Source of the DNA: Myxococcota bacterium
GTDB lineage: Bacteria > Myxococcota_C > UBA6777
Assembly: GCA_023150835.1 (NCBI GenBank)
Contig: JAKLKB010000032.1
Location: 1 to 51,157 of the forward strand
Reading direction: 5' to 3'
DNA: 51,157 nucleotides
Below are positions 12,229-47,170 of the stretch, piece after piece. The position numbers and the translations under genes were made by a program. Within the stretch, counting starts at the first letter, position 1. Each line of letters starts with the position of its first letter. The notes beneath the pieces were generated by a model. The model searched no databases. It was not told where the DNA came from and was given only the letters and a program-made list of their open reading frames with translations.

Positions 12229-14460
<2,232 letters not shown>

Positions 14461-17966: not shown

Positions 17967-18037
17967 AGAGCCGAGAGTGTAGGGGGGATGGGATCTGGGC
18001 GGCGCGGTGTTTGTTCGGATGTCCGAGCGATCGGAGG

Positions 18038-19723: not shown

Positions 19724-19748
19724 GGTCGGGCGGCTCCTTGTTGCGTGG

Positions 19749-21095
19749 TCACTTGTTTGGTTGCGTGGGGTGGGCCGATGGATCATGCGAAAGCAGATAA
19801 TTGGCGCGTAACCATGCCTTGTGGGGGCGGGGGCGGTGTTTTCGGGATCTGTGTTGGGCAAACCACGAACGCATCACGCATTCGGCAGGCTTTCCGCGAG
19901 GCGAATAGCCTTTGTCCTTGGGTCCACCCGGCGCAAACCAGTTCCAGAAAAAGGCTCCGCGCAGGACATCGCTTTTTGACCATACTTCAGCGAAGGCTTG
20001 ATAGCAACGGCGTTGTTCTTCAAGCGAGATCGTCTTGTCGCGGGTGTAATCCCATGGATAGATGTTGGTGCCTTCTTGGCTATAATACCCGACTTCTGTA
20101 AACAGAAGTGGCTGGCGTGGATACGATTTTTTCCATTGTTCGATCTTGTGGCGGAGCTGGGTCCATGTGTTGCGCAGTTGCGAGAGGGGCGGATTGATGG
20201 CCTTGCTGAGCTCATAATAGTTGCTGATGCCGATCAGATCGAGCGCATCCCAAAAGGTGACGGGTTCGTAATGGTCCCAGTTGGCGGAGTAGATCAAGTT
20301 TCCGCTGTAGAGTTGGCGGATGGTACGGATCAGTTGGAGCCATCGGTGGCGATGCTTTTCCATGCTGACAAGCTCGCTACCGACAGAAAACAATTCGATG
20401 CCGTGTTGTTGGGCGATCTGGGCGTAATGGAAGATATAGCGTCGATAGCTACGCCACCAAGCATCGAGATTCGTGGGGTTGATCACGCCGCGCCAATCTT
20501 CGGGGCCGCGTTCTCGGAGTCGGACGATCGGGAGGAGAAAGACTTGGAGTCCTTGTCGGCGGGCTTGGTGGATGGTGCGGATCAGTCGGGCGTCACTGAC
20601 GGTTTTGGTTTCGTGGCGATCGATCTGCGTGGAGCGCACGTTTTTTTGGTACCAACTGACAATAAATCCGACGTGGCTTGCGCCTGTGTGGGCGATATCC
20701 GCGAGGAATCGTTCGTAATCGTAGGCTTGATCTTGGAAGTAGAGTCCGAGGCTGACACCGCGAAAGAACGGATGGGCGTGCCCTTTGCGCCAATCGGGAG
20801 CGGGCGCAGCAGCGGCGGGGGGTCGCATCGGCAGAAGAGGATATTCGTAAGGCTCGGTGCTCGGGAGTTTGCAGTCATAAGCGGTTTGTTGGCTTCGGTT
20901 GATCTGGGCGGTACTTGAGGCCAGCCAAAACACGATCAACAGGAAAAAGCCTACGATGCTCCATCGAGTGCGAGAGGACTGTCGGACCCGATCAAGAAAA
21001 GGCAACACCAGCGGGGCAGCGTCCGAAACAGCGGAAGGTGGGGGGGGGGCGTGTTGGTTTGGAGTATGGGGATCAACGTGCATGGATGCTCTCAT
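19749..21095 (-). CDS. Membrane-anchored glycoside hydrolase family 113-like (TIM barrel) protein
   Basis: ATGA overlap with the upstream kinase stop; TM segment WSIVGFFLLIVFWLA; motifs WRGVI, SVGSEL, YSANWD, FWDALDLIG, FTEVGY, GAFFWNW. Confidence 0.75.
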   Translation of the reverse strand: MRASMHVDPHTPNQHAPPPPSAVSDAAPLVLPFLDRVRQSSRTRWSIVGFFLLIVFWLASSTAQINRSQQTAYDCKLPSTEPYEYPLLPMRPPAAAAPAPDWRKGHAHPFFRGVSLGLYFQDQAYDYERFLADIAHTGASHVGFIVSWYQKNVRSTQIDRHETKTVSDARLIRTIHQARRQGLQVFLLPIVRLRERGPEDWRGVINPTNLDAWWRSYRRYIFHYAQIAQQHGIELFSVGSELVSMEKHRHRWLQLIRTIRQLYSGNLIYSANWDHYEPVTFWDALDLIGISNYYELSKAINPPLSQLRNTWTQLRHKIEQWKKSYPRQPLLFTEVGYYSQEGTNIYPWDYTRDKTISLEEQRRCYQAFAEVWSKSDVLRGAFFWNWFAPGGPKDKGYSPRGKPAECVMRSWFAQHRSRKHRPRPHKAWLRANYLLSHDPSAHPTQPNK

Positions 21096-25449: not shown

Positions 25450-25690
25450 TCACCCCACGCCCTTTGGTTTGTGGGATTCCACCCCACGCCCTTTGGTTTG
25501 TGGGATTCCACCCCACGCCCTTTGGTTTGTGGGATTCCACCCCACGCCCTTTGGTTTGTGGGGTTCCACCCCACGCCCCGCAAGGGAGCGCGCTCCCTTG
25601 ACCCTGTATCGGCGGGGCGAACGGTCGTTTTTTACCCGAGCGACCGCTCCGCTTGAACGCTCGCGAACACGTCTTTTTGTTTTCTGTCAG
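25450..25690. repeat. REP-like dispersed element with its terminal hairpin amplified in tandem (29-nt x4)
   Basis: CACCCCACGCCCTTTGGTTTGTGGGATTC repeats, followed by CCCCGCAAGGGAGCGCGCTCCCTTGACCCTGTAT. Related copies occur at about 32730-32930, 34640-34760, 37100-37215, 39925-40115 and 47270-47400. Confidence 0.8.
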
Positions 25691-25986: not shown

Positions 25987-27843
25987 ATGCACACATTATT
26001 TCAACAAATACAGAAATCTTATACCGCTGCACAACGCATCCTTGACGCCAACCATTCTTTTGGAGCAAATCCTTCGAATGACGAGGCATCTCTTCGTGGC
26101 TTGATGCTGCCTTTTGAACAAAGTATCCGCCATGCTTTCCAAGAATTCATGCAACCACCCTCTTGTTTTGACGATCTTAGAATACATACTTTTTATCGAG
26201 AAGACAAACTCCTTTTTCCTATTTCTGTTCCTCAAGTACCTAAACAAAGCCTCGAAGATATCTGCCAAGATGAATACAGGTCTTTGATGCGCCGCCTTGC
26301 GGCTCTTGCTGATGCTCTCGCACTTCCGCCCCTACGCATCCCCTGTTTTCTTGAAGAATGTTTTGCGCGTGACGAAGAAGGACAAATCTATGCGGCTTGG
26401 CCTTATCTTGCAGGGCTGCGGCTCGCAAATGGACAAACCCAACTCAAGCCCCACCAACGGGCTTTTCGCCATCTGATGCACCCGCAGCTCTCGCGCCAGC
26501 TACCCGACGATCTTGATTCTTACTTGCCTTCTGCGATGTGTTATAGCTTCGTTTTGTTTTTCTTGCGCCAGCTTCATCCGATGGCCGAGCAATGGGTGCA
26601 TCAAAAAGCCTTGGATCGCTTGCGTGCCTTGCTTCCTTGGCTTCCCCCCGCCTTGCCTGCTCTCTTGCAGCACGTCACCTCCACCGAACGTTCTCATCAA
26701 GAACAAGGCGCGACGACGCGATTTTGGAAACAGGTTGAAGAAATTTTTTTACAAGACCTTCATCTTCAAAAACACTCGTCTTTTTGTGATCTAGAGATAG
26801 AAAAAGAAAGCTATCAAGTCAGTGGTCGTCTCAAAGCAGGGCCTTTACAAGACGCTGAGCTTTGTGTCTCTCCCATCCCAAACGCTTTTTGGATGGGCGG
26901 TGTCGCCGATGGCGTATCTACCGCAGACCTCGGCAGCGGCGAAGAGGCCGCCCGTGAAGTCGCTCGTTGTTTCTCTGTCTTGGGCGCGACGTCGATGCCT
27001 CTCCTTGCCCAACCCACCGCATGGCCGATCGCGGTCTCTGACTTTTGGGCGACCTTTGCCAAACAAGCTCATACAGCGATCGCGCAACGCTGCGAAGAGT
27101 TACGTGCGTCTCATTTAGCTCCTGAAACCATCCAAGATCCGATGTCCTCGACCTTTGTTGCTGCGATGATCTTGGGAGATCGGGCAAGCATCGCTTGGCT
27201 GGGGGATAGCCCCGCGTGGCATTATCGAGCGGGTGAAGGCCGCTTGATCCGCTTGACGGTCGAAGATTCTCAGCTTTACGAGCGGCTCCGTGCGGGCGAG
27301 TGGGATGCCCTCTCTACGCCTACCGACGGCGATAACCATCTTTCTCGTTTTCTTGGGATGGCGTATCCTTCCGAACAAGAAACGAATACTTCTCTTGATC
27401 TGATGAAGCCGCATCAGCTTTTTGTCCAATTGCAAGAAGGTGATATCTTGCTTCTTGCCTCCGATGGGCTGCTCTGTGGAATCGGCGGTTTGTCTCCTTT
27501 CGTCCAAGACCAAAAACTCGAACAAAAGATCAAAGAATGCTTACAACAAGATCCTTCTTTGCGTCGTCTCGTGCTCTTTCTTGTTCAAGAGGCGGATCAG
27601 TATGGAGACGACAACATCTCTTTGATCGCTGTACGTGTCTCCAAACTGAACCCTCTGACCCAATCCGATACCTCGCCCTCTTCGGAACCCAAAAGCCCGA
27701 TGCCTGCTTCTGATCCATCTGATACCATTGAGGCGACTCCTTCGTTTTCTTCTTCTCAAACTGGACGCGCCTCGTCTGCGCCCTCTCTCTCTCAAGCAAG
27801 TGACGTCCCTGTCCTCAAAAAAAAGTCCAGAAACAATCGTTGA
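25987..27843 (+). CDS. PP2C-family phosphatase with a divergent, possibly pseudokinase-like, N-terminal domain
   Basis: PP2C motifs VADGVS, MSSTFVAA, WLGDSPAW, RLTVEDS, LLASDGL, DDNISLI are present. The N-terminal assignment is weak. Confidence 0.82.
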   Translation: MHTLFQQIQKSYTAAQRILDANHSFGANPSNDEASLRGLMLPFEQSIRHAFQEFMQPPSCFDDLRIHTFYREDKLLFPISVPQVPKQSLEDICQDEYRSLMRRLAALADALALPPLRIPCFLEECFARDEEGQIYAAWPYLAGLRLANGQTQLKPHQRAFRHLMHPQLSRQLPDDLDSYLPSAMCYSFVLFFLRQLHPMAEQWVHQKALDRLRALLPWLPPALPALLQHVTSTERSHQEQGATTRFWKQVEEIFLQDLHLQKHSSFCDLEIEKESYQVSGRLKAGPLQDAELCVSPIPNAFWMGGVADGVSTADLGSGEEAAREVARCFSVLGATSMPLLAQPTAWPIAVSDFWATFAKQAHTAIAQRCEELRASHLAPETIQDPMSSTFVAAMILGDRASIAWLGDSPAWHYRAGEGRLIRLTVEDSQLYERLRAGEWDALSTPTDGDNHLSRFLGMAYPSEQETNTSLDLMKPHQLFVQLQEGDILLLASDGLLCGIGGLSPFVQDQKLEQKIKECLQQDPSLRRLVLFLVQEADQYGDDNISLIAVRVSKLNPLTQSDTSPSSEPKSPMPASDPSDTIEATPSFSSSQTGRASSAPSLSQASDVPVLKKKSRNNR

Positions 27844-27986
27844 TCTTGTCAGAAACCATACGCCCCCAACGTCTTGGAAGAGATTGCGCTGTTGACCCAC
27901 TCAAGACACAGACCGAACAGGTCGCACAAAGCTGAAACCGCGACGGTTCCTTGCTTTGTGGCTGCCCTTCAACAAGGAGAACCCGT

Positions 27987-29312
27987 ATGTCCGAGCAAGT
28001 CGTCCTTTATCTTGAAACGGATCGAGACTTTATCCCAAAAAAGAAAAGCAACCAACAAGTGATCACGCGGATCAAGATGCAAACCTCCGACGAGCTATTG
28101 CTTTCGTCGCCACAGACCGATTGCTCGATCTTGTTGTTGATCGACACCAGCCAGTCGATGGAGGGGGCTTTTTCCACAGGCTACGCCCAACTCACCCGCC
28201 GCGAAGGTGTCCGACTTGCCGCCGAATCGATGATCCAACTCCTCCAGCCTCGCGACCAAGTGACCTTGGTTTTCTTCAACACTCGCGCCTACGAAGTCGC
28301 CCGTGATGCCGCTGGATCCCAAAAACGCGCACTGTCTGAGCACCTCCAGACCATCCACAACTACAACGGCTCGACGCATTTCGAGGCGGCCTTTGACTAC
28401 GCTGACGCTTGGGCACAAGGACAACCTCCCCAAAAAAGCAAGCGGATCTTGTTTTTGACTGACGGCCAATCCACCGTAGGATCTTGGACTCGCACGCTTC
28501 AATTGGCTGAAAAAGTAGCTTCTCTCGGTGCGACTGTCGATTGTTTGGGCGTCGGTGAAGACTTTGCTTTTGAGGCGATGCAGTCGCTTTCTGGCCCGTC
28601 GGGCGGCACCACCCAACGCTTGTTTTTGCCAAATGACGCCAAACGAGCCTTCCGCGATATCCTACAAAATGCCCAACGTGCCTTGATCCACGACGTCTTG
28701 TTGCAGATCCGTATCCCCCCCGATCGTCGTGACGTCGAGATCTACCAGACTGTTCCTGAGATCCGCTTTTCGATGCCTTCTGTCGACGCAACAGGCGGTA
28801 TGCAACAAATCCTACGCATCGGCGATATCTATCATCACCAAACTGCCGAAGTCTTGATCTCGATGAAGCTTGATACAGACACCCCCGATGCGAACCTTGT
28901 GCTGTTCCATTGTCGTCTTGACTACGCTATCCCAAGCAAGGGCTGGGTCGGCTTGTCCCACCAAGATATCGCACGCGTCAACCTCAGCGATGACCCCCGC
29001 CGTGAACGCCGCGACAGCAGCGTCTTTGAAGAATACACCGAAGCCTCACTTGTCCGTGATGAAGCTGAGTTCCGACAGATCCATACACAAGATTGGAAAC
29101 AGGCGATGCAACTCCTTCAACAAATGAAACAAAAAGCAGCCAATATGCGCTTGGTTGAAAAAGAACGCGCCTTCGAGCAAGCGATCCAACAGATGCAACA
29201 AACGCACGCCTTGAGTCGTGATCAACTCAACCAGCTCTTCGCTCAAAACGCACGCTCCACCCGCTCTCGCAGTCAGCCTGTACGTCAAGCTGCGAAACCC
29301 ATTCAGTTTTAA
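27987..29312 (+). CDS. vWA domain protein
   Basis: AAGGAGA RBS; MIDAS motif LLIDTSQSM, GSTHFEAA, FLTDG, LGVGEDF; helical C-terminus. Confidence 0.88.
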   Translation: MSEQVVLYLETDRDFIPKKKSNQQVITRIKMQTSDELLLSSPQTDCSILLLIDTSQSMEGAFSTGYAQLTRREGVRLAAESMIQLLQPRDQVTLVFFNTRAYEVARDAAGSQKRALSEHLQTIHNYNGSTHFEAAFDYADAWAQGQPPQKSKRILFLTDGQSTVGSWTRTLQLAEKVASLGATVDCLGVGEDFAFEAMQSLSGPSGGTTQRLFLPNDAKRAFRDILQNAQRALIHDVLLQIRIPPDRRDVEIYQTVPEIRFSMPSVDATGGMQQILRIGDIYHHQTAEVLISMKLDTDTPDANLVLFHCRLDYAIPSKGWVGLSHQDIARVNLSDDPRRERRDSSVFEEYTEASLVRDEAEFRQIHTQDWKQAMQLLQQMKQKAANMRLVEKERAFEQAIQQMQQTHALSRDQLNQLFAQNARSTRSRSQPVRQAAKPIQF

Positions 29313-29352
29313 TCTTTTTTCTTTTGCATTCTTTTTCTCTTGGAGGTCTCCG

Positions 29353-30186
29353 ATGGCTTGGAAGTGGAACGCAGCACCACCGCAACATCTTGTCTTACAT
29401 TCCGGCGCAACTTTTGAGATCTATTTGGATATCATCCCCAGCGAAGACGGTACTCTCCCTGCGATCTCATGGGATATCTCTCGCCTTGTTGGTCTTCAAG
29501 CCGAACAAGACGCCTCGGATATCCGACGCCTGCGCATCCACGCCCGTTGGGACAACGCCAGTTTCTCCCGTGTCTTTTATCGCGTCGAGGATCACACCCT
29601 TCGTTCTCACGGTATCGTCACTCTCGAAGTACCTTTGCAAGACCCTTCTTCTGTTCAACACCACACGTTCCTCTCTCAGAAAGAAGGCGATCTTGGAGGT
29701 GTTCTTCATCCACCACAAATACAAGACCAAAAAGAACAAGACTTCCATGAAAAAGAGGATATTGATTGGGAACTTGTCGATGCGTTCCTTGAAGTTTGGC
29801 GCGGTGACGAAAAAATCCAATCGCTTTCTCGCCCTTTGCCTAGAGAGCGAAGTATGACAGTCGGTCGCTTTTCCTTGGATCTGCCTGAGCGTATCGACCT
29901 CGATCTCGCAGGGCACTTCCCCAATGAATCGGATGAGCGACTTTGCTCGCGTTTGCAAGCCGAGATCTTTTGGCGAAAAGGCCGATTGTGGGTCCAAGAT
30001 CGCGGTCGCCATCCGATCTACGCAAAGCGCGACCCGCACCTCTTGCGCTGTTTGAGTGAACCTCATCCATGGGCAGAAGAAGAAGTCTTGCTTTTGCCCG
30101 GCGGACTCTCTTTGCGCTTGGTTCTCGAAGAAAAGAGCAATCTGCCTGTAAACGATCCAAGAAAAAAAGAGCATCGAAGGAGTTAA
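29353..30186 (+). CDS. FHA-like domain protein
   Basis: GGAGG RBS before MAWKW; the C-terminal MTVGRFS...IDLDL...CSRLQAEIFWRKGRLWVQDRG matches the FHA GR / SRxHA pattern. Confidence 0.68.
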   Translation: MAWKWNAAPPQHLVLHSGATFEIYLDIIPSEDGTLPAISWDISRLVGLQAEQDASDIRRLRIHARWDNASFSRVFYRVEDHTLRSHGIVTLEVPLQDPSSVQHHTFLSQKEGDLGGVLHPPQIQDQKEQDFHEKEDIDWELVDAFLEVWRGDEKIQSLSRPLPRERSMTVGRFSLDLPERIDLDLAGHFPNESDERLCSRLQAEIFWRKGRLWVQDRGRHPIYAKRDPHLLRCLSEPHPWAEEEVLLLPGGLSLRLVLEEKSNLPVNDPRKKEHRRS

Positions 30187-30192
30187 ATACAG

Positions 30193-31218
30193 ATGGGCCG
30201 ACTTACTAAAAACCGACACGCTGGACTTCGGATCGATGTATCGTATGGTGAAGATGACGGAGAACGCTTTGCGATCCCTTCTCTCTTGGGTGAGCGCTAC
30301 GAGATCACGGGCTGGCTCGCAGCAGGCGGATTTGGAGCGGTCTTTGTCGCCCGTGATCGGCGGATCTTTGACCGCCTTGTCTTGGTCAAGGCCAACCGTT
30401 ACTCGCCACACCTTTTTTCTCACCCACACGACGCCGAAAGAGACCGCGTGGTCGCCGAACAACGCGCTCGGATGCAGCACGAAGTCGCGATGTTGCGCAT
30501 CGCCCAACAACGGGAGATCGCTGGAACTCCCGTCTTGATCGATCTCCTCTATGCTCCTAGCCCCCAACTCTACGGCCCTCACCGTGGCCCTGACGGCCAA
30601 CACTTTGTGCTCGATGCCCAAGAAACCATGCAAGAACCTTATCTTGTCATGGGCTCGATCGACGGTGAAAGCTTGGGGCGTGCTTGTACCCGACCTCGGT
30701 TTCGTGATCAGCTACTCAAAAACACAAAAACCGTAGCCATCCAGCTTTGCGGTATCTTGCAAGCCTTTCATCGCTACGAACACCACGATGCCGGAAAGCT
30801 GGCCTTTATCTACCAAGATCTGAAACCCGAAAATGTCATCTGGACCCCCACCCGTTGCGCTTATTTGATCGACTTTGGTAGCTTTGCTGTACGAACTCCT
30901 GACCGCGTTGGCGGACAAAATCGCTTTCTTTGTACGTCTCCCTACGCTCCACCCGAGTTCTCTCAGTCCTATTCCGCTGAAGAGGCCATCGTCCCTTTGG
31001 CCGATATCTATTCCCTTGGCGTGACCCTGATCCATCTGTTGAAGGGCAAGATCCCTTGGATATCCCACACAGGACAAGTCGACTTGTCGCTCGATGCTTC
31101 TTGGCCGAGTGCTTGGCGGTCTTGGTTGCAACGCGCTACCGCAGAAGAGCCTTCCGAGCGTTTCACCTCGATGCTTGAGATGCAGCAGATCGCTTACCAG
31201 CTACCCGACAACGCGTAG
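30193..31218 (+). CDS. Hanks-type Ser/Thr protein kinase with intact motifs
   Basis: AAGGFGAVF, VLVK, HEVAML, YQDLKPENV, IDFG, YAPPE, DIYSLG, ERF. Confidence 0.9.
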   Translation: MGRLTKNRHAGLRIDVSYGEDDGERFAIPSLLGERYEITGWLAAGGFGAVFVARDRRIFDRLVLVKANRYSPHLFSHPHDAERDRVVAEQRARMQHEVAMLRIAQQREIAGTPVLIDLLYAPSPQLYGPHRGPDGQHFVLDAQETMQEPYLVMGSIDGESLGRACTRPRFRDQLLKNTKTVAIQLCGILQAFHRYEHHDAGKLAFIYQDLKPENVIWTPTRCAYLIDFGSFAVRTPDRVGGQNRFLCTSPYAPPEFSQSYSAEEAIVPLADIYSLGVTLIHLLKGKIPWISHTGQVDLSLDASWPSAWRSWLQRATAEEPSERFTSMLEMQQIAYQLPDNA

Positions 31219-31336
31219 GCTCTCGGAGCATCGGCTTTTTTCGTTTCTTCGTCGCCCACTCTCTTTCTTCGGCGACCTCGCAACTTGTCTTTTCCGTTGC
31301 ACTTTGCCATACCCAACCAACACGGAGGGCTTCGTG

Positions 31337-32707
31337 ATGTTTGTTGCTCAAGAGATCATCCAAGACGACCGCGATGAACGGCGTTGGCAGATCTTGCGCC
31401 CTGAACCCCGCCATCTTTTGGGAGAGTACCCTCTCTCCTTCTGGTCGGTGCGCGATCTGCGCCTCCAACGTGACTTGTCCATGCTGGGCTTGAACTACGC
31501 CCGTATCCCCAAAGATCGCCTCGCGTGGGATATCCCTGTGTTGCACCAGTGCTTTTCTCGCCTTGTCAAATTGATCAGCCAAAACTGCAATGCGTTTCCG
31601 GAAGCCATCGATTGGGTTTCTTGTACAAAACATCGCAGTCTTTCTTCTTTTCATGAACCATTCTTTGTCTTTTCTCCTGTCCAAGGAAGAGGGATCTCAC
31701 CACTCAAATCCGATGAACCCGATCGAGAGAAAAAAGTTGAACGTCTCTGTAAAAGTGTCGCCAACCTTTTGCGTGATATCCACCAAAACGGCGCTGTCTT
31801 ACGGGCTTTGCCTTTGCGTGGACTCCGCCGAAATCCTGCCAACCAAGTGATCCAGATCGCTTCGTTTTATACGCTTCAATCCATCGCAGAATTTCAAGGC
31901 TTCAACCCTTACGAAGCCGGCTTTCATCCTTCGCCCCGCTATGCCGCTCCTGAGTGCTTTGCTTCTTCTTCCGCCCTCACTCCCGCGACCGATGTGTACG
32001 CCTTGGGCTGTTTGCTCTTGGAATACCTCGGCGTGGCCTTGCCCGAACATCCCATCCCGCCCAACGATATGGACGCCCTTTGTCTCTCTTTGAACCTTTC
32101 TCCTTGGTGGCAGCGCTTTTTTAAGCTGGCCCTCCACGAAGTCCCTGAAGCCCGTTTTCAAGGAATGAGCGAGGTCTTGGCCTACGTCCTCTCTCGTGGG
32201 CAGCCTACACCACGCCAAAATACCCATGCCCGTCAGGCCCCTACACCTCACGCTCCCCGTACCAAACGCCCCGATGCCCCTCCTGCCGCACTCTTGATCT
32301 GGGGCGAGCAACTTCAACCCAAAGATCAGCGCTTCGATATCCACAAGCTCCTGCGTGATCTCCAAGCCCGCTATAGCTTGGGGCCTCTGCTCTATTTCGC
32401 TCTCGAACAAAACAACATGGACAACCCATACTTCCAACTCCTCCGAAAGCTGTCTTTTCAGATCGTCCCCTATCGCTTTCGCGATTCGATCTCTTCGTTT
32501 CTTCAAGACGCAAGCCGCCAGTGGTCCCCTACCCCACGCCACCTCATCGTCGGAAACCTCGACCAATCCGGCATCCAGACCCTGATCAAGATCGCTGAAC
32601 AATCTCGCGTCCACTTCGAAGTCTTTTCCACGGGCGGGCGCCCCCTCGCCCACCAAGGCAAGGCCGTCGATGCTCGTTCTTATCTCCAACAAAAAACCTC
32701 TTTTTAG
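31337..32707 (+). CDS. Pseudokinase fused to a degenerate NYN/LabA-like domain
   Basis: GGAGG RBS. The C-lobe motifs YAAPE, DVYALG and ARF are retained, but the catalytic loop (VLRALPLRGL) and DFG are lost. The C-terminal LLIWGEQL...DIHKLL...LYF...LLRKLSFQIV...LIVGNLD...FEVF pattern resembles a NYN fold (inference). Confidence 0.65.
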   Translation: MFVAQEIIQDDRDERRWQILRPEPRHLLGEYPLSFWSVRDLRLQRDLSMLGLNYARIPKDRLAWDIPVLHQCFSRLVKLISQNCNAFPEAIDWVSCTKHRSLSSFHEPFFVFSPVQGRGISPLKSDEPDREKKVERLCKSVANLLRDIHQNGAVLRALPLRGLRRNPANQVIQIASFYTLQSIAEFQGFNPYEAGFHPSPRYAAPECFASSSALTPATDVYALGCLLLEYLGVALPEHPIPPNDMDALCLSLNLSPWWQRFFKLALHEVPEARFQGMSEVLAYVLSRGQPTPRQNTHARQAPTPHAPRTKRPDAPPAALLIWGEQLQPKDQRFDIHKLLRDLQARYSLGPLLYFALEQNNMDNPYFQLLRKLSFQIVPYRFRDSISSFLQDASRQWSPTPRHLIVGNLDQSGIQTLIKIAEQSRVHFEVFSTGGRPLAHQGKAVDARSYLQQKTSF

Positions 32708-32949
32708 AGAGATGTGTTGGATGGTTTTTGTGGGGTTCCACCCCATACGCGCAAGGGCTTGTTTTTGTGGGTTCCGCCCCACACCCCGCAAGAGCTTGTT
32801 TGTGTGGGGTTCCACCCCGCGCCCCGCAAGGGAGCGCGGCTCCCTTGACCCTGTGTTGGCGAACTGATCACCGTTTTTCAAACCAGCGACGCTCTCGCTT
32901 GGAGTGCCGCGAACGCGGCTTTTTTTGGCGACTGCATCGTACGAAATCT

Positions 32950-33142
32950 GCTCGTTGTGTGATCGTAAAGACGTAGGGGCAGCCCCCCGTGGCTGCCCAA
33001 CCGCAGGGCGTCTACAGCGGATCGCGCTGGCCCTTCCGATCGCACCTCTTTCGGATACCGTACCACACGAGATCCGCTCGTTGTGTGATCGTAAAGACGT
33101 AGGGGCAGCCCCCCGTGACTGCCCAACCGCAGGGCGTCTACG
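32950..33142. repeat. Direct duplication (126-bp period) containing GTAG-REP hairpins
   Basis: GCTCGTTGTGTGATCGTAAAGACGTAGGGGCAGCCCCCCGTG(G/A)CTGCCCAACCGCAGGGCGTCTAC occurs at 32950 and 33076. A related REP occurs at about 14780 and, reversed, at about 40195-40220. Confidence 0.8.
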
Positions 33143-33207
33143 CACTATCCTTTGCGTACACGTCACTCGGATACCGTATAAGCCCTATTTAGAAACAAGG
33201 AGCGCCC

Positions 33208-34542
33208 ATGTCCAACAACAAAACTTTCAACGAACGCTACAGCGAAGCTCTGCCTTTGTTTCGTGCTGAAAACTACAAAGCTGCTTTGCCGCTTTTTCAA
33301 TCCCTACTACCCGAAGCGCCTGATCCCAAGGACCGCGCAAAGATATTGGCCAATATCCTTTCTTGTTTGCGGAAACTCGAACACAACGACAGCGCTTATT
33401 GGAAACAGATCGCGGGTGACTATGCCAAAACCCTTCACGATCCTGACGCTGTGAACTGGCCGAGCCAGCCCGCAGAGCAAGCCTTTGAAAAACTTGCCTG
33501 TGCTCTTTTTGAATACGATCCACAAGGCAGCTATGCGTTCTTGCTTGATCTCTATCGCTCCCTACCGACGGCCTTTTGTGCTGCTTTTGAAACGGGTCTT
33601 GCGACCGCCTTTGATCAAGAAGCCCGTCAATACGACCGTGCAGGTCACGAGGATCGTGCGCGGCAGATGGGCGAGCTTTATCTCGAATTGACCGCGTCCA
33701 GCACTGAGCACAAGGGAACCCGCGTCGCCATCCGCAACCGACTCGCCGATATGCTGATCTTCCATGCCTCCCGCGCAAACGAAGATCTCGAACGTCGCGC
33801 TTTCATGCTCTTGCAGGAGAGTCTCCAAGAACAACCCGACAATCGCTTTGCACGTTCTCTCCAAGAACACATCGCCCAACGCAACACTTTTCGCTTGCAG
33901 ATCGATCGCTTTTGGCATGACACACACAACCGCATCGCGCCGATGAAGACCAGCCTTCGCCGTCTACAAGAAGCCCCGCTCTCCAAACCGCTCCAAGACG
34001 CTGTTTCCGATCTCGACTACAACTTGGGCCTGATCGACACCAGCTTGCGTCTTTCAGGTGCTGCCCAAGGTTCATCGGCTGTCTTGCAACCTTCGCCCCA
34101 ACAATACCAAGACGTCGATCCTGTCGGCGTCTGCCGCGAGACGCTCCGACAAAATCACCTTGATCCAGAGGCGGTCGTTTTTCTCGGTCAGCCCGCTCCT
34201 TGGGAGATCGCCCCCAGCTATCTCGGCCTTGCTCTCCACAATCTCCTCCTCAACAGCCTTGAAGCCTACCGACGGCGTTCGCTACCTTTGCCGCAGCAGC
34301 CCGTCACCCTGACCATCGACTATCACCTCCAAACCATTCGTGTTTGTGACGCTGCTGGCGGGATATCTCCGCATATCTCTGATCCCTTTCTCCCTTACGT
34401 CTCGGAAAAAGGCGTGCAGATGACGTCTGGACTTGGACTCCTCCAAGCTCGCGAAGCCATCCGAGCGATGGGCGGTTCTTTGGTGCTTGATCCCCAACAA
34501 CCCAACGGCGGAGCCGCGTTCTTGATCCAATTGCCTCGTTGA
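33208..34542 (+). CDS. Cytoplasmic sensor histidine kinase with a TPR-like N-terminus
   Basis: AAGGAG RBS; H-box DRFWHDTHNRI, N-box LHNLLLNSLEA, DAAGGI, PFLPYVSEK, SGLGLL; no transmembrane segments seen. Confidence 0.85.
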   Translation: MSNNKTFNERYSEALPLFRAENYKAALPLFQSLLPEAPDPKDRAKILANILSCLRKLEHNDSAYWKQIAGDYAKTLHDPDAVNWPSQPAEQAFEKLACALFEYDPQGSYAFLLDLYRSLPTAFCAAFETGLATAFDQEARQYDRAGHEDRARQMGELYLELTASSTEHKGTRVAIRNRLADMLIFHASRANEDLERRAFMLLQESLQEQPDNRFARSLQEHIAQRNTFRLQIDRFWHDTHNRIAPMKTSLRRLQEAPLSKPLQDAVSDLDYNLGLIDTSLRLSGAAQGSSAVLQPSPQQYQDVDPVGVCRETLRQNHLDPEAVVFLGQPAPWEIAPSYLGLALHNLLLNSLEAYRRRSLPLPQQPVTLTIDYHLQTIRVCDAAGGISPHISDPFLPYVSEKGVQMTSGLGLLQAREAIRAMGGSLVLDPQQPNGGAAFLIQLPR

Positions 34543-34840
34543 TCTCCACGGCTCCAACACACAACAACACCGCTACAGCGGGGCCGCTTTCTTTGATCTA
34601 TGTGGACTCTTTCCTCTCTTTAGGAGGCTTTTGTGGACAAAAAACCCCGTGCTCTCGCCCGATCAAGCGACAGCGTTGTTTGTTTGAAAAACAATCGCTC
34701 TCTTCGCCAAACACGGGGTCAAGGGGGCCGAGACCCCTTGCGGGGTTTGGGGCAGCGCCCCATCAAACAAGCCAACTGCGTCAGTTCTTTCTTTACCTTG
34801 CTCCCAACAACAACGGGAGCGCACACAAAAGGAAACGCCA

Positions 34841-35941
34841 ATGCAACACGAACGTCGCCGTGTCCTCTTGATGGACGATGAGATCGCTTCCAGCCCATTG
34901 CTCAAACAAACTGTACAGGCGCTGCGCGAAGCGGGCTTCGATGTCACCGAAACCGACCGTATGTCCGCTGCGATGGATGCTTTTTATCAAAGCTACTATC
35001 ACATCTTTATCCTCGATATCGATATGAGCTTTGTCGAAGATATCCAAAATGGCGATGGCTCCGATGTCGCTCGCTTCTTTCGCGCCCTTGATAGCGAAAC
35101 CAACGTGATCTTTTTCAGCGCCCGTGGAAAGATCCGCCATTGGTTTGCCGCCGCAAACTACCATCTCTTCGGCTATGTCTTCAAAAGTGATGGCCCTGAT
35201 CCCATCCAAAAGCTGGTCGATCTCGCCCAACAAGCCGCCACCACAAAACCTCCGCACTCTTCGTTGTTGCGAAAACCCAGTCCCCCTCAACGTGCGATGC
35301 TTTACTTGCCTTCCTCCCTCCAGTCCGTCTCCGCACAAGACCTCCAACGTTGGACGCAAGAGGCCCTTCCTTCGTGGGAGATCGTCTCCTTCTCCGAAGC
35401 CCCTGACGCCGCCCTTCAACTCGAACAATCTCCCCGTACATGGGGGCTTGTGATCGCTGCTTCCGATTCTTTTTCCACTCGACCCCGACAAATCGGACCG
35501 ATCCGACAACTCTGTCGCCCTGATCTCCAACCCCACACGATCTACGCCTGTTGCGGCATCGAAAACAACAAAGACGCCATCTTGGATCTCGTGAACGCCC
35601 ATCCTTTCCGCTTCCTTGATCTCCTTGACACCGACTTCTCTTCCCAATTCACACAGGCCATCCTCGATGCTGTCCGACTCTACGGCCTCCAAGAGCGCTT
35701 GCTTGCTTCTCCCGATGCTCTCAAACGCCTTCGTCTCGACTTTTCCGAGGAAACCTACGCTCTTGTTCGCGACTCTTTCCCTGATGACCACGCTTGGGAG
35801 ATCGCCGAAGATTCTTCCGACTCTCTCGACGCTTCCGACCAAGAATACACAGACGACTCTTCCGACGATCCCGAAAACGATGACCAAGGCACCTCCGAAA
35901 CATCTCCTGCCCCCCATCCTCACAAGGAGGAACTCACATGA
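34841..35941 (+). CDS. Response regulator with a REC domain, a second REC-like domain and an acidic tail; no DNA-binding output domain
   Basis: VLLMDDE, IFILDIDM, FFSAR, GYVFK. The second domain has the HPFRFL pattern. The C-terminus is Asp/Glu-rich. Confidence 0.8.
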   Translation: MQHERRRVLLMDDEIASSPLLKQTVQALREAGFDVTETDRMSAAMDAFYQSYYHIFILDIDMSFVEDIQNGDGSDVARFFRALDSETNVIFFSARGKIRHWFAAANYHLFGYVFKSDGPDPIQKLVDLAQQAATTKPPHSSLLRKPSPPQRAMLYLPSSLQSVSAQDLQRWTQEALPSWEIVSFSEAPDAALQLEQSPRTWGLVIAASDSFSTRPRQIGPIRQLCRPDLQPHTIYACCGIENNKDAILDLVNAHPFRFLDLLDTDFSSQFTQAILDAVRLYGLQERLLASPDALKRLRLDFSEETYALVRDSFPDDHAWEIAEDSSDSLDASDQEYTDDSSDDPENDDQGTSETSPAPHPHKEELT

Positions 35942-37047
35942 ACACCCGTCCCTCCGCTCCCAACGTCTTTCGCAAACCTTCTCCTTCGCACCGTCCTTCA
36001 CGTCCCACACGCACTGCACCCCAAACCTTCATCCTCGATACCAACATCCTCCATCTTTGGGTGATGGAGATGACCGGTACCCCGCCTCCTTCTTCTTTCG
36101 ATCACATCCGCGCTCAAAAAGAACACGAAAAGCGCGCACGCGCCAAAAGCTTTTGCGAAAGCGCTTGCTCCCAACGCCTCTTTGTGATCCCCCCCGTCGT
36201 TTGGGTCGAGCTGTACGGTGTCCTTTTACAAAAAGATATCGATGTCTCCAACTATGTTCATTGGCGTCGTCTCCGCAAAGCCGCCCTCCAGCCGCTTGAG
36301 TCGATGATCGGGATGTCGGGGACTTTTTTTTCCATCGGTGAAGAAGAACTCGATCACGAACGCGCTGTCGAGATGTGCCGTGCTGAAGCCTCCGCAGAAC
36401 TCCTTGCCGCGTGGTCCGAGCGCGTCGGGCGTACCTATGACGACGGACGCCCCGTTGTGATCAAGGGACTTGACGGCATCGATGCCGCGATCTTGTCCTA
36501 CGCATGGAGCTATGCAGAAGCCCATCCTGATCGCGAAGTTCGTCTTGTCAGCGACGATCACGGCCTCGGCTTGATGGTTCAAGAACTCCACCGTTCCCCC
36601 AGCCTCGCTGGCGAAGAAATGCCCCCAAATCTCGGCTTCCGTAGCCTTTGGGGCAAACGCTTTCCCGAAACCCTCTCTTTCCATCCTCCTTCCACACCAC
36701 CCACCGCCACTTCCACTAAAGACGTCGTCTCCCCTACATCCACCGCCACTTCCTCTCAAGGCTCCACCATCCCCCCCAAAAACGCCGTCTCCCCCAAAGA
36801 CGCCGCCTCTCCTACACCCACCGCCACTTCCACTAAAGACGCCGCCTCCCCTACAACCACCGCCACTTCCACTAAAGACGCCATCTCTCCTACACCCATC
36901 GCCACTTCCGCTAAAGACGCCGTCTCCCCTACATCCACCGCTGCTTCCTCACCCTCTCCCGTCTCTCTGCCCTCGCCCGCTGTTGCGAACTCCGATACCG
37001 CAAACACACTTGCGCAAACGGCCTCGACTGTGTCAGAAAAACCCTAG
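35938..37047 (+). CDS. PIN-domain ribonuclease with a Thr/Ser/Pro-rich repeat tail
   Basis: ATGA overlap with the regulator; the PIN acidic tetrad is visible in FILDTNIL, VWVELY, DGIDAAIL, LVSDD; C-terminal KDAxSPTxTATST repeats. Confidence 0.8.
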   Translation: MNTRPSAPNVFRKPSPSHRPSRPTRTAPQTFILDTNILHLWVMEMTGTPPPSSFDHIRAQKEHEKRARAKSFCESACSQRLFVIPPVVWVELYGVLLQKDIDVSNYVHWRRLRKAALQPLESMIGMSGTFFSIGEEELDHERAVEMCRAEASAELLAAWSERVGRTYDDGRPVVIKGLDGIDAAILSYAWSYAEAHPDREVRLVSDDHGLGLMVQELHRSPSLAGEEMPPNLGFRSLWGKRFPETLSFHPPSTPPTATSTKDVVSPTSTATSSQGSTIPPKNAVSPKDAASPTPTATSTKDAASPTTTATSTKDAISPTPIATSAKDAVSPTSTAASSPSPVSLPSPAVANSDTANTLAQTASTVSEKP

Positions 37048-37218
37048 CCACACTCGCCCGCCCTCGGGCCGCTTCTGAAAGGAGCAACTCCCTGAGAAAC
37101 CCCGTTTCCGCGCCCCCACCAAGCGGCACAGTCGTTGGATTGAAACACCACTGCTTGTCCCGCCAATACGGGGTCAAGGGGGCAAAGCTCCCTTGCGGGG
37201 TTTGGGGCCGCGCCCCAA

Positions 37219-37405
37219 AAGAGCAGTCCAAAAACCCAAAAAGATCAAACCAAAAACCCAAACCAAAAGATCACCCCTCTTTTCCCTTCCCTAAATACAC
37301 AAGGACCGAGCAAGAGCAATCCAAAAACCCAAAAAGATCAAATCAAAAACCCAAACCAAAAGATCACCCTTCTTTTCCCTTCCCTAAATACACAAGGACC
37401 GAGCA
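37219..37405 (+). repeat. 93-bp direct duplication of the CARF gene 5' region, including its RBS
   Basis: Two near-identical copies end in ACACAAGGACCGAGCA; the first is followed by AG and the second by TG, which forms the start codon. Confidence 0.85.
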
Positions 37406-38886
37406 TGACGAACCAAACTCCGTTACAAGAAAAAACCGCTGAATGGAAGCGCCTTGCCGAAGAAGGAAAGGGCTCTGTTGACGAAGCCACCGCCTTTTAT
37501 GATCGCGAAGTGTTTCCGCTCGTTCGCACCCACTTCATCGAAGATGCCGAAGCGAAGGGCATTCACCCTGTTGACGCGCTGATCTTGCCCGTAGGCACAA
37601 GCCCTGAGCCGATTATCTTGTCCATCTTGGCCCTCAAGCCGCAGCGCGTGATGTTTTTGCCCACCCCTCAAACCCGCCAGCATCTCGACCGCATCATCGC
37701 TGAAACCCAGCTCAAACCCAGTCAATACCAAGACAAGACGATCGATGGCTCCGATGTCTTGGAGATCTACCGATGTATGCACCAAGCCGTCCGCGAGTGG
37801 CCTATCGCCACAAAGATCGGCGTCGATATCACCGCTGGAAAAAAGGTCATGTCCGCAGCTTGCGCCATTGCAGGCACCCTGATCGAGATGCGGATCTTTT
37901 ACGTCGATAGCGACTACCTCCCCAAACTCCGCCGCCCCGAACCCGGAACCGAGTACTTGAGCGAACTGCCCAATCCGCTCGTTGTCTTCGGCGATATCGA
38001 AGAACGTGAGGCCCGTAAACTTTATGCTGCCGCTGATTATGCCGGTGCTGCCAAACTTTGGGAACACCTCGCCATACGCATCCAAAACCCCACCGCTCCG
38101 GCTCTTTTCTCCTTCCTCGCACGTACCTACGAAGCGTGGGATCAACTCCACTACGCCAACGCCTTGGCTTCCATCCAAAAGCTCAATCAATCCGTCCGAC
38201 AATTTGGAAAAGATGCGCCTGTGTTTTTTCAATCCCACAAAGACCGCCTTTTCAAACAACAGCGCCTGCTCGAACGCATGGCCCATTCCGTCGATGAGAT
38301 GGGCAAAGAGACCGCTCTTGATTTGCAGATCCTCCAACAAAAAGACGCCATCCACGCCCTGATCCTCGAACTTTGGGCCTACGCCCAACGCAAGATCCAC
38401 CTCCGCGACCTCTCGACCGCCTCCTTGCTTCTGTATCGCACCGCCGAGCTTCTTGCACAACGCCGCCTTGCCCTTTATGGCATCGATCCTTCTCTCGCCG
38501 ATTATGCCCAACCCGGTATCGATCCCCAAGCCCTTCTCGATGCCGTCAATGCCCAACGCGTTTCCTTTAAATTTGAACGCCTCCAAGAACTCCCCATCAA
38601 GATCGCTATGCTCGATGCCTACGTGCTTTTGATCGCTCTCAACGATCCTTATGCTGCTCCTCTGGCCGAAAAACAATACAGCGGACTACAGCGCTTCAAT
38701 GGCATCATCAAGGCCCGAAATTCCTCGATCTTTGCTCACGGCTTTAAATTCGTCGCAGACGAACACGTCCGAAAAATGCGCGCCGAAGTCGAAGCACGCT
38801 TGCTTGATTTCTTCCGTGTCGAGGGCGTCTCCGATCCAGAGATCCAAGCCCAACAACAAGAACATTGTTTCCTAACCTTGGAGTGA
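37405..38886 (+). CDS. CRISPR-associated CARF protein with a C-terminal HEPN-like RNase motif (TIGR02710/Cas_02710-like)
   Basis: CARF motifs LILPVGTSPEPII and VDITAGKKVMS; IFYVDS...RRPEPGTE...LPNP; LYRTAEL; HEPN-like RNSSIFAHG. Confidence 0.85.
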   Translation: MTNQTPLQEKTAEWKRLAEEGKGSVDEATAFYDREVFPLVRTHFIEDAEAKGIHPVDALILPVGTSPEPIILSILALKPQRVMFLPTPQTRQHLDRIIAETQLKPSQYQDKTIDGSDVLEIYRCMHQAVREWPIATKIGVDITAGKKVMSAACAIAGTLIEMRIFYVDSDYLPKLRRPEPGTEYLSELPNPLVVFGDIEEREARKLYAAADYAGAAKLWEHLAIRIQNPTAPALFSFLARTYEAWDQLHYANALASIQKLNQSVRQFGKDAPVFFQSHKDRLFKQQRLLERMAHSVDEMGKETALDLQILQQKDAIHALILELWAYAQRKIHLRDLSTASLLLYRTAELLAQRRLALYGIDPSLADYAQPGIDPQALLDAVNAQRVSFKFERLQELPIKIAMLDAYVLLIALNDPYAAPLAEKQYSGLQRFNGIIKARNSSIFAHGFKFVADEHVRKMRAEVEARLLDFFRVEGVSDPEIQAQQQEHCFLTLE

Positions 38887-38926
38887 CCCAAGGCTATCTG
38901 CGAACTTGTATCATAGGAGAATTTCG

Positions 38927-39904
38927 ATGTATGGACTCGAAAAGCTGGAGATCGCACAGGTCTCTTGTCTCTTGCGAGCCAAGCGAAGCGCGGAGCTTCC
39001 ACCTTACCTTGGCTCGACTTTGCGTGGAGCGATCATCGATGCGATGCGGGCGACGGCTTGTCCGATGCGTTGCGAAAAGGTCGATGCTTGCGAAGGCAGA
39101 GCGCATTGCCCTTATGCTTATTGCTTTTCACCGCCACCACCGCCCCGCCAAGAAAACCTTCGGGGCTTTCTTGATCCCCCCCGCCCTGTCTTTGTGATCC
39201 CTCCGCCGATCCAAGCCACCGCGTGGGAACCTGCTCAACCTCTGCCCTTTGATCTGATCTTTGTGGGCCGTTCGATCACTTATTTTCAACAAGTTGCGGC
39301 TTCGCTGATCTTTGCTGTGCAGCATGGCCTCGGAAAAGGCCGCGCCCCTTTTGATTTGCTTGCCGTTCAAAATTGCCTCGGTGAACACAAAGGCGTCTCT
39401 CTTTGGAACCAAAACAAAGACTTCTTTTTGCCTGTTCAACCCACTCCCATCGCTGATGTTTTTCCCCTTCAGATCGGCCCTTCTGATACTGTACATATCA
39501 CTTTTCTTTCTCCGCTGCGTCTCGTCGAGCAAAACAAACTGCTGATGAAGCTTTCGTTTCGGTCTTTTTTCGGCCCTTTGTTGCGCCGTCTCTCTTCTCT
39601 TTTGTACTTCCACTGCGACGGCGAGTTGCAGATGGATATCCGTGATACCTTGTCCCGCGCTGAATCCGTTCAAACCCTCTCTTCTCACCTCGAATACGTC
39701 CCCCTCGAACGTTGGAGTAGTCGGCAAAATCAACACGTCCCGATGGATGGCTTGATGGGTTCGATCCTTTGGAAAGGCGATCTGATCCCTCACGTCTGGC
39801 CTTTGTTGCAGATCGGTTCGTTGCTCCACGTCGGCAAAGGCGTCAGTCTCGGTCTTGGGCGTTATCAGATCTCTTCTCTTCCTTCTCTTCCTTCTCTTCC
39901 CTAG
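38927..39904 (+). CDS. cas6: CRISPR pre-crRNA processing endoribonuclease Cas6 (variant with a Cys-rich N-terminal insert)
   Basis: AGGAGA RBS; YLGSTLRGA, CxxxC...C...CPY, PPRPVF, GLGKGR, FLSPLRL, and the G-rich loop HVGKGVSLGLGRY. Confidence 0.9.
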   Translation: MYGLEKLEIAQVSCLLRAKRSAELPPYLGSTLRGAIIDAMRATACPMRCEKVDACEGRAHCPYAYCFSPPPPPRQENLRGFLDPPRPVFVIPPPIQATAWEPAQPLPFDLIFVGRSITYFQQVAASLIFAVQHGLGKGRAPFDLLAVQNCLGEHKGVSLWNQNKDFFLPVQPTPIADVFPLQIGPSDTVHITFLSPLRLVEQNKLLMKLSFRSFFGPLLRRLSSLLYFHCDGELQMDIRDTLSRAESVQTLSSHLEYVPLERWSSRQNQHVPMDGLMGSILWKGDLIPHVWPLLQIGSLLHVGKGVSLGLGRYQISSLPSLPSLP

Positions 39905-40630
39905 TTGGAAATTCTCTGCGGAGGTTCCACCCCACGCCCCTTCTTGTTTTGTGGGGTTCCACCCCACGCCCCTTCTTGTTTTGTGGGGTTCCACCCCACG
40001 CCCCGCAAGGGAGCGCGGCTCCCTTGACCCCGTATTGGCGGGGCAAACAGACGTTTTTCAAACCAACAACGGCTCCGCTTGAAAGGGCGCGAACACGGGT
40101 TTTTTTGGCAACTGCGTCTCTCTTCTCCTAATTGGACCTATACGATATCCGCGTGATCGGTGATCGAAGGAGAGTACGTAGACGCCCGATTGTTGGGCAG
40201 CCACAGGGGGCTGCCCCTACCTTTTTACGATAAGTCAACGGGCGGATCTCGTATTATGCGGTTGAAAAGGGAAACCCTGAGATATCAGAACGTTGTAGGG
40301 GCGGTTCGCGAACCGCCCACGCCCGAACATCTGCCTTTTTCGTATCGAACTGCGTAAGTCCTATCCTAATTGGAATACGGTATCCGAGAGATGTGTACCT
40401 AAAGCAAACGTCTGCGAATACGTCTTTTTTCTCTGCACGCCACTCCTTTTTTTCAAAAACAACAGCTATGTTTCTTGAACGTCTGCGAACGCGTCTTTTT
40501 TCTCGATAAGCCACTCCTATCTTCGCAAGCTATTTCTTTTCTTCTGTTTGGTTTGTTCTCTCGGGATGTCGGGGATTTTACCCTGTGGTTCTGTATGGGC
40601 AAAGTGACACAAAAAGAATGGAGGTTTGCT

Positions 40631-46759: not shown

Positions 46760-46891
46760 TCTTGTTTCGGGTTGCGCAGGGGAGGCGAGTGTTGTCTCGC
46801 GATCTTCTCCTTCTTGATGATCGGATGGCTGGGGTTTGGAAGTCTTCTTGGTTTTTTCACGCAAATTTTGTCAACATGGATGGAACAAGCG

Positions 46892-47170
46892 ATGCTTTAC
46901 CTTGTCGTGAGTTACGATATCACCGAAGATCGACGGCGAAACCGAGTCGCCAAGCTGATGGAAAACTATGGCACGCGTGTGCAGTATAGCGTCTTTGAGT
47001 GCTTGCTCCAAGAGCAAAGCCTGCTTGAACTCCAAGAGCAGTTGCAGGCGATCTTGGATCTGGAAACGGACAGCGTGCGTTTTTACCGCTTGTGTGTTCG
47101 ATGTCGAGCGGGCATCGAGATATTCGGGCGCGGAACAACACAAAGCGAAGAACCCTTTGTAATTCTTTAG
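46892..47170 (+). CDS. cas2: CRISPR-associated endonuclease Cas2
   Basis: VVSYDITEDRRR, YGTRVQYSVFEC, DSVRFYRLC. An alternative ATG lies at 46880. Confidence 0.96.
   Translation: MLYLVVSYDITEDRRRNRVAKLMENYGTRVQYSVFECLLQEQSLLELQEQLQAILDLETDSVRFYRLCVRCRAGIEIFGRGTTQSEEPFVIL

Follow-up and report, generated by a model that had tools for sequence, protein, structure and literature searches.

We describe a block of eight genes (g1–g8) on the plus strand of a 51,157-bp contig (JAKLKB010000032.1) from a Myxococcota bacterium; this contig, taken whole, is the window analysed here, and it belongs to an assembly (GCA_023150835.1) of 7.56 Mb in 239 contigs. Across phyla, these eight genes are found together inside type III CRISPR loci, and their order does not change. 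Our reading of this observation, to which we would give a probability of about 0.55, is that g1–g8 are the core of an accessory cassette that is rare, moves horizontally and belongs to type III loci, mostly of subtype III-D and bearing a reverse transcriptase (RT); phosphorylation-gated RNA cleavage is the mechanism that we infer for it. The interval 25963/25987–38886 of the window is filled by nine co-oriented plus-strand open reading frames (ORFs), of which the last, g9, ends 19 nt before the start of cas6. This layout bears out the first-pass annotation of this DNA, which saw nine plus-strand genes leading into cas6.

How widely is this gene order kept? A search with the g2 protein scored 8,000 candidates out of 5.8 billion proteins, and 17 of these are relatives at E ≤ 0.001; two genomes of the same genus contain generic vWA matches only and no g2 orthologue. 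Scans with an alignment of the g2 relatives returned 14 pattern matches in a collection of genomes from 185,579 species, five of them true relatives (a Planctomycetia metagenome-assembled genome (MAG), Desulfobacter latus, a Verrucomicrobiota MAG, Thiocapsa imhoffii and a Thiocystis violascens MAG), and 189 pattern matches in a metagenome collection, 22 of them relatives. Two loci that exactly duplicate others (L018 of L017, and L024 of L023) were counted once with their partners, and L036 and L037 were dropped as cassette loci, their vWA genes standing at 24% identity and accompanied by no other cassette gene. After these removals 23 loci are left, which together with the window make 24 cassette loci.

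The gene content of the loci was taken from tblastn with the window proteins and from all-against-all clustering. In all six loci that are long enough (the window, L011, L012, L017, L022 and L023), g1–g8 stand in identical order, the PIN gene of L012 being recognised by Pfam and the g1–g8 genes of L011, L017, L022 and L023 by tblastn, and on shorter contigs the order is unchanged up to the contig ends. Identities to the window proteins lie between 25 and 40%, and the loci come from at least four phyla. In L015 the histidine kinase and the receiver (REC) half of g7 are missing and the second, pseudo-receiver (pseudo-REC) half is kept together with the PIN gene; in L033, a short contig, g1 and g2 are followed directly by a piece resembling a histidine kinase, which may be a rearranged form. 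Thus g1–g8 are one cassette, a single block in fixed order across phyla, and not the separate Ser/Thr and His-Asp modules into which the first-pass annotation had split them.

That annotation had also proposed looking for homologues next to cas genes in other genomes, and here the outcome is positive. Loci were treated as evaluable when at least 2.5 kb could be read beyond the cassette, which holds for 9 of the 24, the other 15 being too short; in all nine (the window, L011, L012, L014, L015, L017, L022, L023 and L026) the cassette is located within or next to a type III CRISPR-cas locus, mostly III-D. The CRISPR context in the window consists of csm6 (g9), cas6, RT, cas1, cas2 and an array. 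In D. latus (L012/L046) the cassette is followed by Cas10d (E = 4e-140, containing GGDD), Cas7, Cas5_IIId (6e-129) and two more Cas7_IIId genes with gaps of at most 94 nt, and Cas1, two Cas2, RT and cas6 lie beyond these effector genes. The L011/L047 locus has cas6, an RT-Cas1 fusion and cas2, with Cas7_IIId genes and a Cas10d-like gene farther upstream. Cas7_IIId, a CARF nuclease and Csx16/Cas_VVA1548 are found upstream in L014, L015 and L023, and in the last of these the cassette is flanked on one side by a Cas7 fragment, the CARF nuclease and Csx16/Cas_VVA1548 (E = 6.5e-38) and on the other by RT, a Cas2-Cas2 fusion and Cas1. L022 begins with two Cas7_IIId genes and L026 with a Cas7 fragment, while Cmr6 (6.8e-28) and a CARF protein (1.4e-11) upstream of L017 suggest a III-B context for that locus. 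The Cas2-Cas2 fusion of L023, recorded here for its own sake, is a tandem of 234 aa with two Cas2 matches, encoded at 19180–19884 on the minus strand between RT and Cas1.

Could such a block stand beside cas genes by accident? One hypothesis is that g1–g8 serve ordinary cellular signalling, in development or stress, and adjoin cas genes by chance, in a genome that is rich in Ser/Thr kinases and vWA-FHA proteins (for example at 18038–19861 on the minus strand). However, the cassette is absent from the same-genus genomes, extremely rare and repeatedly CRISPR-linked across phyla, and the neighbourhood counts already contradict this hypothesis, which we regard as very improbable. That the cassette occurs in at least four phyla, and at shifting positions within the loci, also argues against chance.

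A second hypothesis is that the cassette is an autonomous defence or stress system of TerY-P-like type that merely shares defence islands with CRISPR and is not functionally coupled to type III interference. The triad of vWA, PP2C and Ser/Thr kinase is the theme of TerY-P, and TerY-P-like modules are described as stand-alone defence in passages of PMC10542128; moreover, an MmeI-type restriction enzyme also stands beside the L015 cassette, and the window copy is bounded by repeat elements. However, the neighbours in the 9/9 evaluable loci are type III cas genes rather than assorted defence genes, and the cassette is lodged between effector and adaptation genes in L023 and runs into Cas10d, with the short gaps given above, in D. 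latus. Also at odds with this hypothesis, g1, g2, g3, g6, g7 and g8 are matched by no PADLOC model at E ≤ 0.01, in a library whose content of TerY-P models was not checked; g4 and g5 are matched by generic kinase models only (PD-T4-6, Mad6 and MkoA). We consider an autonomous system improbable, and place it below the hypothesis that follows.

Which stage of CRISPR immunity would the cassette then serve? An alternative to interference is adaptation, such that the RNases and signalling proteins control or supply RNA or DNA for RT-dependent spacer acquisition. RT is present in four of the four loci with a visible Cas1 (the window, as an RT-AEP fusion; L011, as an RT-Cas1 fusion; L023; and D. latus L046), which keeps alive the earlier suggestion that RNA fragments are generated for the adaptation module, and this count may reflect only the descent of a single lineage of RT-bearing III-D loci. 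In the window and in L011 the cassette adjoins the adaptation module and not effector genes, and its pseudokinase bears a nucleic-acid-binding domain, NYN-like or cold-shock-like. On the other hand, the D. latus cassette directly adjoins Cas10d and the other effector genes, the adaptation genes lying beyond those; the genes beside the cassette in L014, L015, L022 and L026 include effector or CARF genes; and kinases take part in no known adaptation pathway. A role in adaptation is the strongest of the rival hypotheses and still, in our view, an unlikely one.

The interpretation as a phosphorylation-gated cassette depends on what the eight proteins are, and here the domain calls of the first-pass annotation for g1–g9 were each confirmed by Pfam, PADLOC or orthologue alignments, those of FHA, PIN and PP2C being weak by Pfam. 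All coordinates that follow are on the plus strand. The g1 protein (25987–27843) consists of an N-terminal domain of ~290 aa with no assigned family and a PP2C phosphatase domain, whose PP2C_2 match (E = 3.9e-5) scores 23.7 bits against a cut-off of 24. In 13 orthologues the PP2C motifs ADGVS, GDS, SDG and DDN show little or no variation: among 13 sequences the metal-binding residues D308/G309, D407 and D493/G494 do not vary, and D542/N543 reach at least 90% conservation. A kinase-like assignment of the N-terminal domain (ESM Atlas, 0.91) was dropped, hhalign of the g1 family giving probabilities of 1% against the g4 family and 0.3% against the g5 family. The g2 protein (27987–29312) is a vWA protein (E = 8e-14) with an intact metal-ion-dependent adhesion site (MIDAS), its DxSxS being invariant in 16 sequences, and a family-specific C-terminal extension; some of its relatives carry a precomputed vWA-TerF-like match (PF10138).

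In g3 (29353–30186) an N-terminal domain precedes a divergent FHA-like domain, for which the Pfam match is weak (E = 0.036). Of 12 orthologues, six have an FHA match, the best at E = 0.0088 and all under the cut-off, and no other family is matched; of the FHA signature the G-[KR], S and S-R elements are kept, Gln mostly takes the place of the His, and there is no counterpart of the Asn. The g4 protein (30193–31218) matches Pkinase at E = 5e-15 and has the full set of catalytic motifs, with G45/G46/G48, K66, D209-L-K-P-x-N214 and D227-x-G229 invariant in 11 sequences. Judged by these motifs, g4 is a predicted active eukaryote-like Ser/Thr kinase.

The g5 protein (31337–32707) is of a different kind. 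Its kinase-like part (31337–32251) matches Pkinase at E = 2e-4, reads LH..V.RQLP in place of HRDLKPxN, has no DFG and keeps APE; because the HRD Asp and DFG are lost while APE is retained, it is regarded as a pseudokinase. The last 151 residues (32252–32707) have as relatives almost only the C-termini of g5 orthologues, with 18 matches among 1.84 billion representatives. An AlphaFold model of this domain, built on a 22-row alignment, has a predicted local distance difference test (pLDDT) score of 92.6, and VIA-align against 48,161 PDB representatives ranked the LabA/NYN protein 2qip_A first (Z 13.7, 138 aligned, root-mean-square deviation (rmsd) 3.0) and the Marf1 NYN domain 5yaa_A second (Z 12.5, 137 aligned, rmsd 3.4), with the next match at Z 9.0. 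Foldseek agrees (2qip, E = 3e-4), and ESM Atlas leads are weak (0.79–0.80, one of them an NYN cluster); the NYN call is based on the structure search, and on this modelled structure the C-terminus of g5 is predicted to have an NYN/LabA fold.

Whether this domain is a nuclease in its own right is another matter. Among 22 sequences, and with positions matched to the active site by eye and not by superposition, an acidic residue is found at position 19 in 15/22, D57 in 11/22 and D104 in 12/22, and N58 is present in 22/22; the window copy carries E19, D57 and D104. Moreover, L021/L022 have a cold-shock-like sequence in its place, and L012/L017 lack the domain altogether. For these reasons, the partial conservation of the acidic positions and the swap or loss in relatives, the domain resembles an appendage for nucleic-acid binding or processing that can be exchanged, rather than a fixed catalytic output. 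The first-pass claim that each module ends in a proven or putative RNase fold stands in that such folds are found, NYN-like by structure, PIN by motifs and HEPN by strong Pfam and PADLOC scores, but the NYN-like output varies from locus to locus.

Downstream of a 500-nt gap, g6 (33208–34542) encodes a cytoplasmic histidine kinase with a helical/TPR-like N-terminus, an H-box and HATPase_c (E = 5e-8), in which the RFxHD H-box (H237/D238), N349 of the N box and D381-x-A-G-G of the G box are invariant in 8 sequences. The response regulator g7 (34841–35941) begins with a REC domain (E = 1.4e-10), whose pocket of MDDE, LDIDM, S and K is at least 90% conserved at each element, continues with a second receiver-like domain and ends in an acidic tail. 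The C-terminal half is modelled at pLDDT 88 as a second receiver-like fold (best match Z 12.8, with receiver domains predominating among the best 50 structural matches) and lacks a conserved acceptor Asp, which makes it a pseudo-REC domain. Because this half is a receiver-like fold, g7 is predicted to have no DNA-binding output domain, only a receiver-like fold beyond REC.

The stop codon of g7 overlaps the start of g8 (35938–37047) by 4 nt. By Pfam, g8 reaches 19.5–21 bits for PIN_4, under the cut-off of 21.9; three of seven orthologues match PIN_4. The L012 orthologue scores 24.4 bits on PIN_4, over the cut-off. The residues D34, E91, D179, D182 and D207 are invariant in 7 orthologues, and by this set of acidic residues g8 is a putative PIN-domain nuclease. 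A window-specific S/T/P-rich tail of ~120 aa, encoded by 39-bp repeats (36698–36948), is found in no orthologue. A complex prediction for the g7 pseudo-REC domain with the g8 PIN domain scored 0.00 against a mark of 0.32, a result that counts neither for nor against binding. Taken by their conserved motifs, the PP2C phosphatase g1, the kinase g4, the histidine kinase g6, the first REC domain of g7 and the PIN protein g8 look catalytically competent.

How might these parts work together? We propose that the vWA protein g2, the FHA-like protein g3, the kinase g4 and the phosphatase g1 would form a reversible phospho-switch resembling TerY-P, which would assemble upon a trigger tied to type III interference. 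The pseudokinase g5 would act as a scaffold that brings in the nucleic-acid-binding domain, NYN-like in the window and cold-shock-like elsewhere, and the signal would then pass to the soluble histidine kinase g6 and to the REC/pseudo-REC regulator g7, which would gate the translationally coupled PIN RNase g8. The rationale for this last step is that g7 has no apparent transcriptional output, that g7 and g8 overlap by 4 nt, and that L015 keeps precisely the pseudo-REC half together with the PIN gene. The outcome would be phosphorylation-gated RNA cleavage, leading to dormancy, abortive infection or control of the response, and this phosphorylation arm would run beside, and not through, the cyclic-oligoadenylate (cOA) arm that is served by g9. 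The complete cascade, in which type III interference or Cas10d is wired to vWA/FHA/kinase/PP2C, then to pseudokinase, histidine kinase and REC/pseudo-REC, and finally switches on a PIN RNase, is put forward tentatively, and we consider it less likely than not. If true, it would amount to a second signalling currency of CRISPR immunity besides cyclic nucleotides, with Ser/Thr and His-Asp phosphorylation in one immune pathway.

The boundary of the cassette lies before g9 (37405–38886), which encodes a Csm6/Csx1-type CARF-6H-HEPN effector. Its Pfam matches to Csm6 HEPN (E = 9e-23, 81 bits) and 6H (31.9 bits) are both over the cut-offs, a CARF domain is present, the PADLOC CARF_HEPN model is matched at E = 9e-115, and the R-x4-6-H motif is present as RNSSIFAH. 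Although the first-pass annotation had counted this CARF-HEPN protein as a part of one multi-module system, Csm6 is absent from the g1–g8 block in the other loci, where a different CARF effector is found elsewhere in the locus. The g9 protein is thus an ordinary cOA effector, Csm6, separate from the conserved cassette.

In relatives, further genes accompany the core. Just upstream of g1, 11 loci have a double AAA+ ATPase (~870 aa) and a coiled-coil protein (~210 aa), a pair that is replaced in L015 (Thiocystis) by an Hsp70-like ATPase and a small coiled-coil protein (5689–7891); the MmeI-type enzyme of that locus, a restriction-modification enzyme, follows the cassette at 17055–19934. Several loci also have a ~500-aa protein without a Pfam or PADLOC match and its Fer4_12 radical-SAM partner, the latter with a weak match to a viperin model (E = 6e-5). 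The position of this pair differs between loci, some having it upstream and others downstream of the core, the family being located at 17338–20829 in L012, 17392–19603 in L022, 2760–4960 in L023 and 15526–16500 in L046, and a 324-aa relative of the 500-aa family stands directly before Cas10d in D. latus. A tblastn search of the window genome for orthologues of the AAA+, coiled-coil and 500-aa proteins gave only generic radical-SAM, AAA and Hsp70 matches.

Repeats punctuate the window copy. A hairpin core of repetitive extragenic palindromic (REP)-like type, GGTTCCACCCCAC, has 54 exact copies in the genome (~7 per Mb), and REP-like clusters, all on the plus strand, lie before g1 (25451–25578, a hairpin tandem of 29 bp × 4.4), in the g5–g6 gap (32724–32832) and between cas6 and RT (39923–40004). 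A 93-bp tandem duplication on the plus strand (37219–37405) lies immediately 5' of the csm6 start codon, in the g8–g9 gap, where repeat elements span 37213–37405. The first-pass remark that repeat elements separate the modules is correct in that repeats are present in the g5–g6 and g8–g9 gaps. RNA data were available as four metatranscriptome libraries, all from one sample of one study, and their contigs match the region without differences and bridge g1–g2, g2–g3, g3–g4, g4–g5, g6–g7, g7–g8 and g9–cas6, which gives a weak hint of transcription in blocks. A scan for promoters and terminators found 4 promoter-like sites (6.3 expected) and 37 terminator-like sites (19.3 expected); REP-like hairpins account for many of the terminator-like sites, and for this reason the scan is not decisive.

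Several observations weigh against the interpretation of g1–g8 as a phosphorylation-gated accessory of type III immunity. No CARF or SAVED domain was found in g1–g8, and none of their domains has a known role in reading type III signals. The window itself contains neither Cas10 nor RAMP genes, so that the type III effector genes nearest to this cassette are on other contigs, where the same genome has two RAMP clusters, one of them with a Cas10d-like gene. The loci share descent, so that each cannot be counted as an independent case. The PIN and FHA calls depend on weak Pfam scores, and a profile of the g8 PIN family, searched by sequence against the PDB, gave no relative at E ≤ 1; the acidic residues of the NYN-like domain are conserved in only about half of the sequences. 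Neither the window nor L011 has the AAA+/coiled-coil and radical-SAM genes of 11 other loci, and because these extra genes are lacking the window copy may represent a cassette that is reduced or in part disabled. Finally, the g5–g6 and g8–g9 junctions are bridged by none of the 32 listed RNA-library pieces (of 815), although both gaps hold repeats with depth spikes and the lack of bridging is no evidence of separate transcripts; DNA carry-over in the RNA libraries may also lie behind the contigs that bridge the other junctions.

Comparison with known systems places the cassette between several of them. Known type III ancillary effectors read cyclic oligoadenylates or SAM-AMP via CARF or SAVED-type sensors. 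The cassette resembles ancillary effectors of the Csm6/Csx1 and Can1/2 type in that its genes are accessory genes kept in type III loci and end in nucleases, and the window itself has a canonical Csm6; it differs in that g1–g8 have no such sensor and have protein-phosphorylation parts instead. In the TerY-P triad the vWA protein TerY is joined by a PP2C and a Ser/Thr kinase (Anantharaman et al. 2012; Gao et al. 2020; both as summarised in passages of PMC10542128). In both cases a MIDAS vWA (here g2), a PP2C (g1) and a Ser/Thr kinase (g4) are encoded together in a defence context, and a kinase-family protein has a C-terminal nucleic-acid-binding domain, of OB/zinc-ribbon type in the TerY-P of that account and NYN-like or cold-shock-like here. 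In contrast, TerY-P comprises three genes and the genes described here are always part of a block of 8–12 or more, which adds an FHA-like protein, a pseudokinase, the histidine kinase/response regulator pair and the PIN protein and is embedded in type III loci.

Among other vWA-based and kinase-based systems, vWA-related systems with kinase and phosphatase proteins (UAS-7, -87, -91, -100, -129, -139, -149 and -155) are stated in a single sentence to be linked statistically to CRISPR loci (Altae-Tran et al. 2023, PMC10910872), and the g1–g8 cassette may be one of them; the main-text passages on these systems give no gene order, histidine kinase-response regulator-PIN part, subtype link or mechanism. 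A vWA-STK-FHA-PP2C operon of Deinococcus radiodurans, outlined in a preprint (bioRxiv 10.64898/2026.01.23.701218), forms a phospho-switch from the same four domain types, but it serves DNA-damage signalling and, in that outline, has no CRISPR linkage, pseudokinase-NYN protein, two-component pair or PIN. The kinase-kinase-phosphatase (KKP) module of Pf prophages, a phage defence (PMC11341870), likewise joins two kinase-family proteins and a phosphatase; as portrayed in excerpts of that article, it differs in being prophage-encoded, of three genes, and free of vWA, FHA, two-component, PIN or CRISPR links. Relevant passages on vWA ternary systems (Kaur et al. 2020, PMC7159879) and on TerY-P with Hsp70-like and coiled-coil partners (the CoCoNuT preprint, PMC10542128) do not describe the cassette. 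A full-text literature search returned no paper describing this gene order within the text that it covered, the closest approach being one sentence in PMC10910872.

What would set this cassette apart is its composition, a conserved block of 8–12 genes that is tied to type III loci across phyla and in which protein kinases and a phosphatase are joined by adaptor domains that depend on phosphopeptides or metal, by a two-component pair and by a PIN protein. To our knowledge, the characterised type III accessory effectors are all driven by small nucleotide messengers from Cas10. The cassette therefore points to a putative further layer of control or execution in CRISPR immunity, and its link to RT-bearing adaptation modules could bear on RNA-derived spacer acquisition. 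A small and concrete set of natural loci is available, among them that of the cultured Desulfobacter latus.

Downstream of g9, and on the plus strand throughout, the window continues with cas6 (38906–39904), a reverse transcriptase fused to an AEP primase-polymerase domain (40475–43117), a TPR and AEP protein (43203–45650), cas1 (45647–46759), cas2 (46772–47170) and a CRISPR array (48165–51091), which has a 37-nt repeat ending ATTGAAAC with 41 exact core copies and reaches the contig end. The RT-AEP fusion, with an AEP of TOTE type, is 880 aa long and the TPR-AEP protein 815 aa, the gene of the latter containing a 72-bp in-frame tandem repeat (45016–45226, 2.9 copies, 96% identical); RVT and AEP are listed among adaptation-linked genes in a figure legend of PMC10910872. 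Between cas2 and the array lies a 42-bp tandem repeat of 5.5 copies (47442–47670), and the same repeat recurs at the very end of contig C44 (24316–24510), beside a Cas10d-like/RAMP operon, and on contig C201; a leader or regulatory element common to these places is one possible explanation, a simple dispersed repeat another. On the minus strand, 12229–19861 contains a second, unrelated signalling cluster with a cNMP-binding Ser/Thr kinase, a double-REC GGDEF protein and a vWA-FHA protein.

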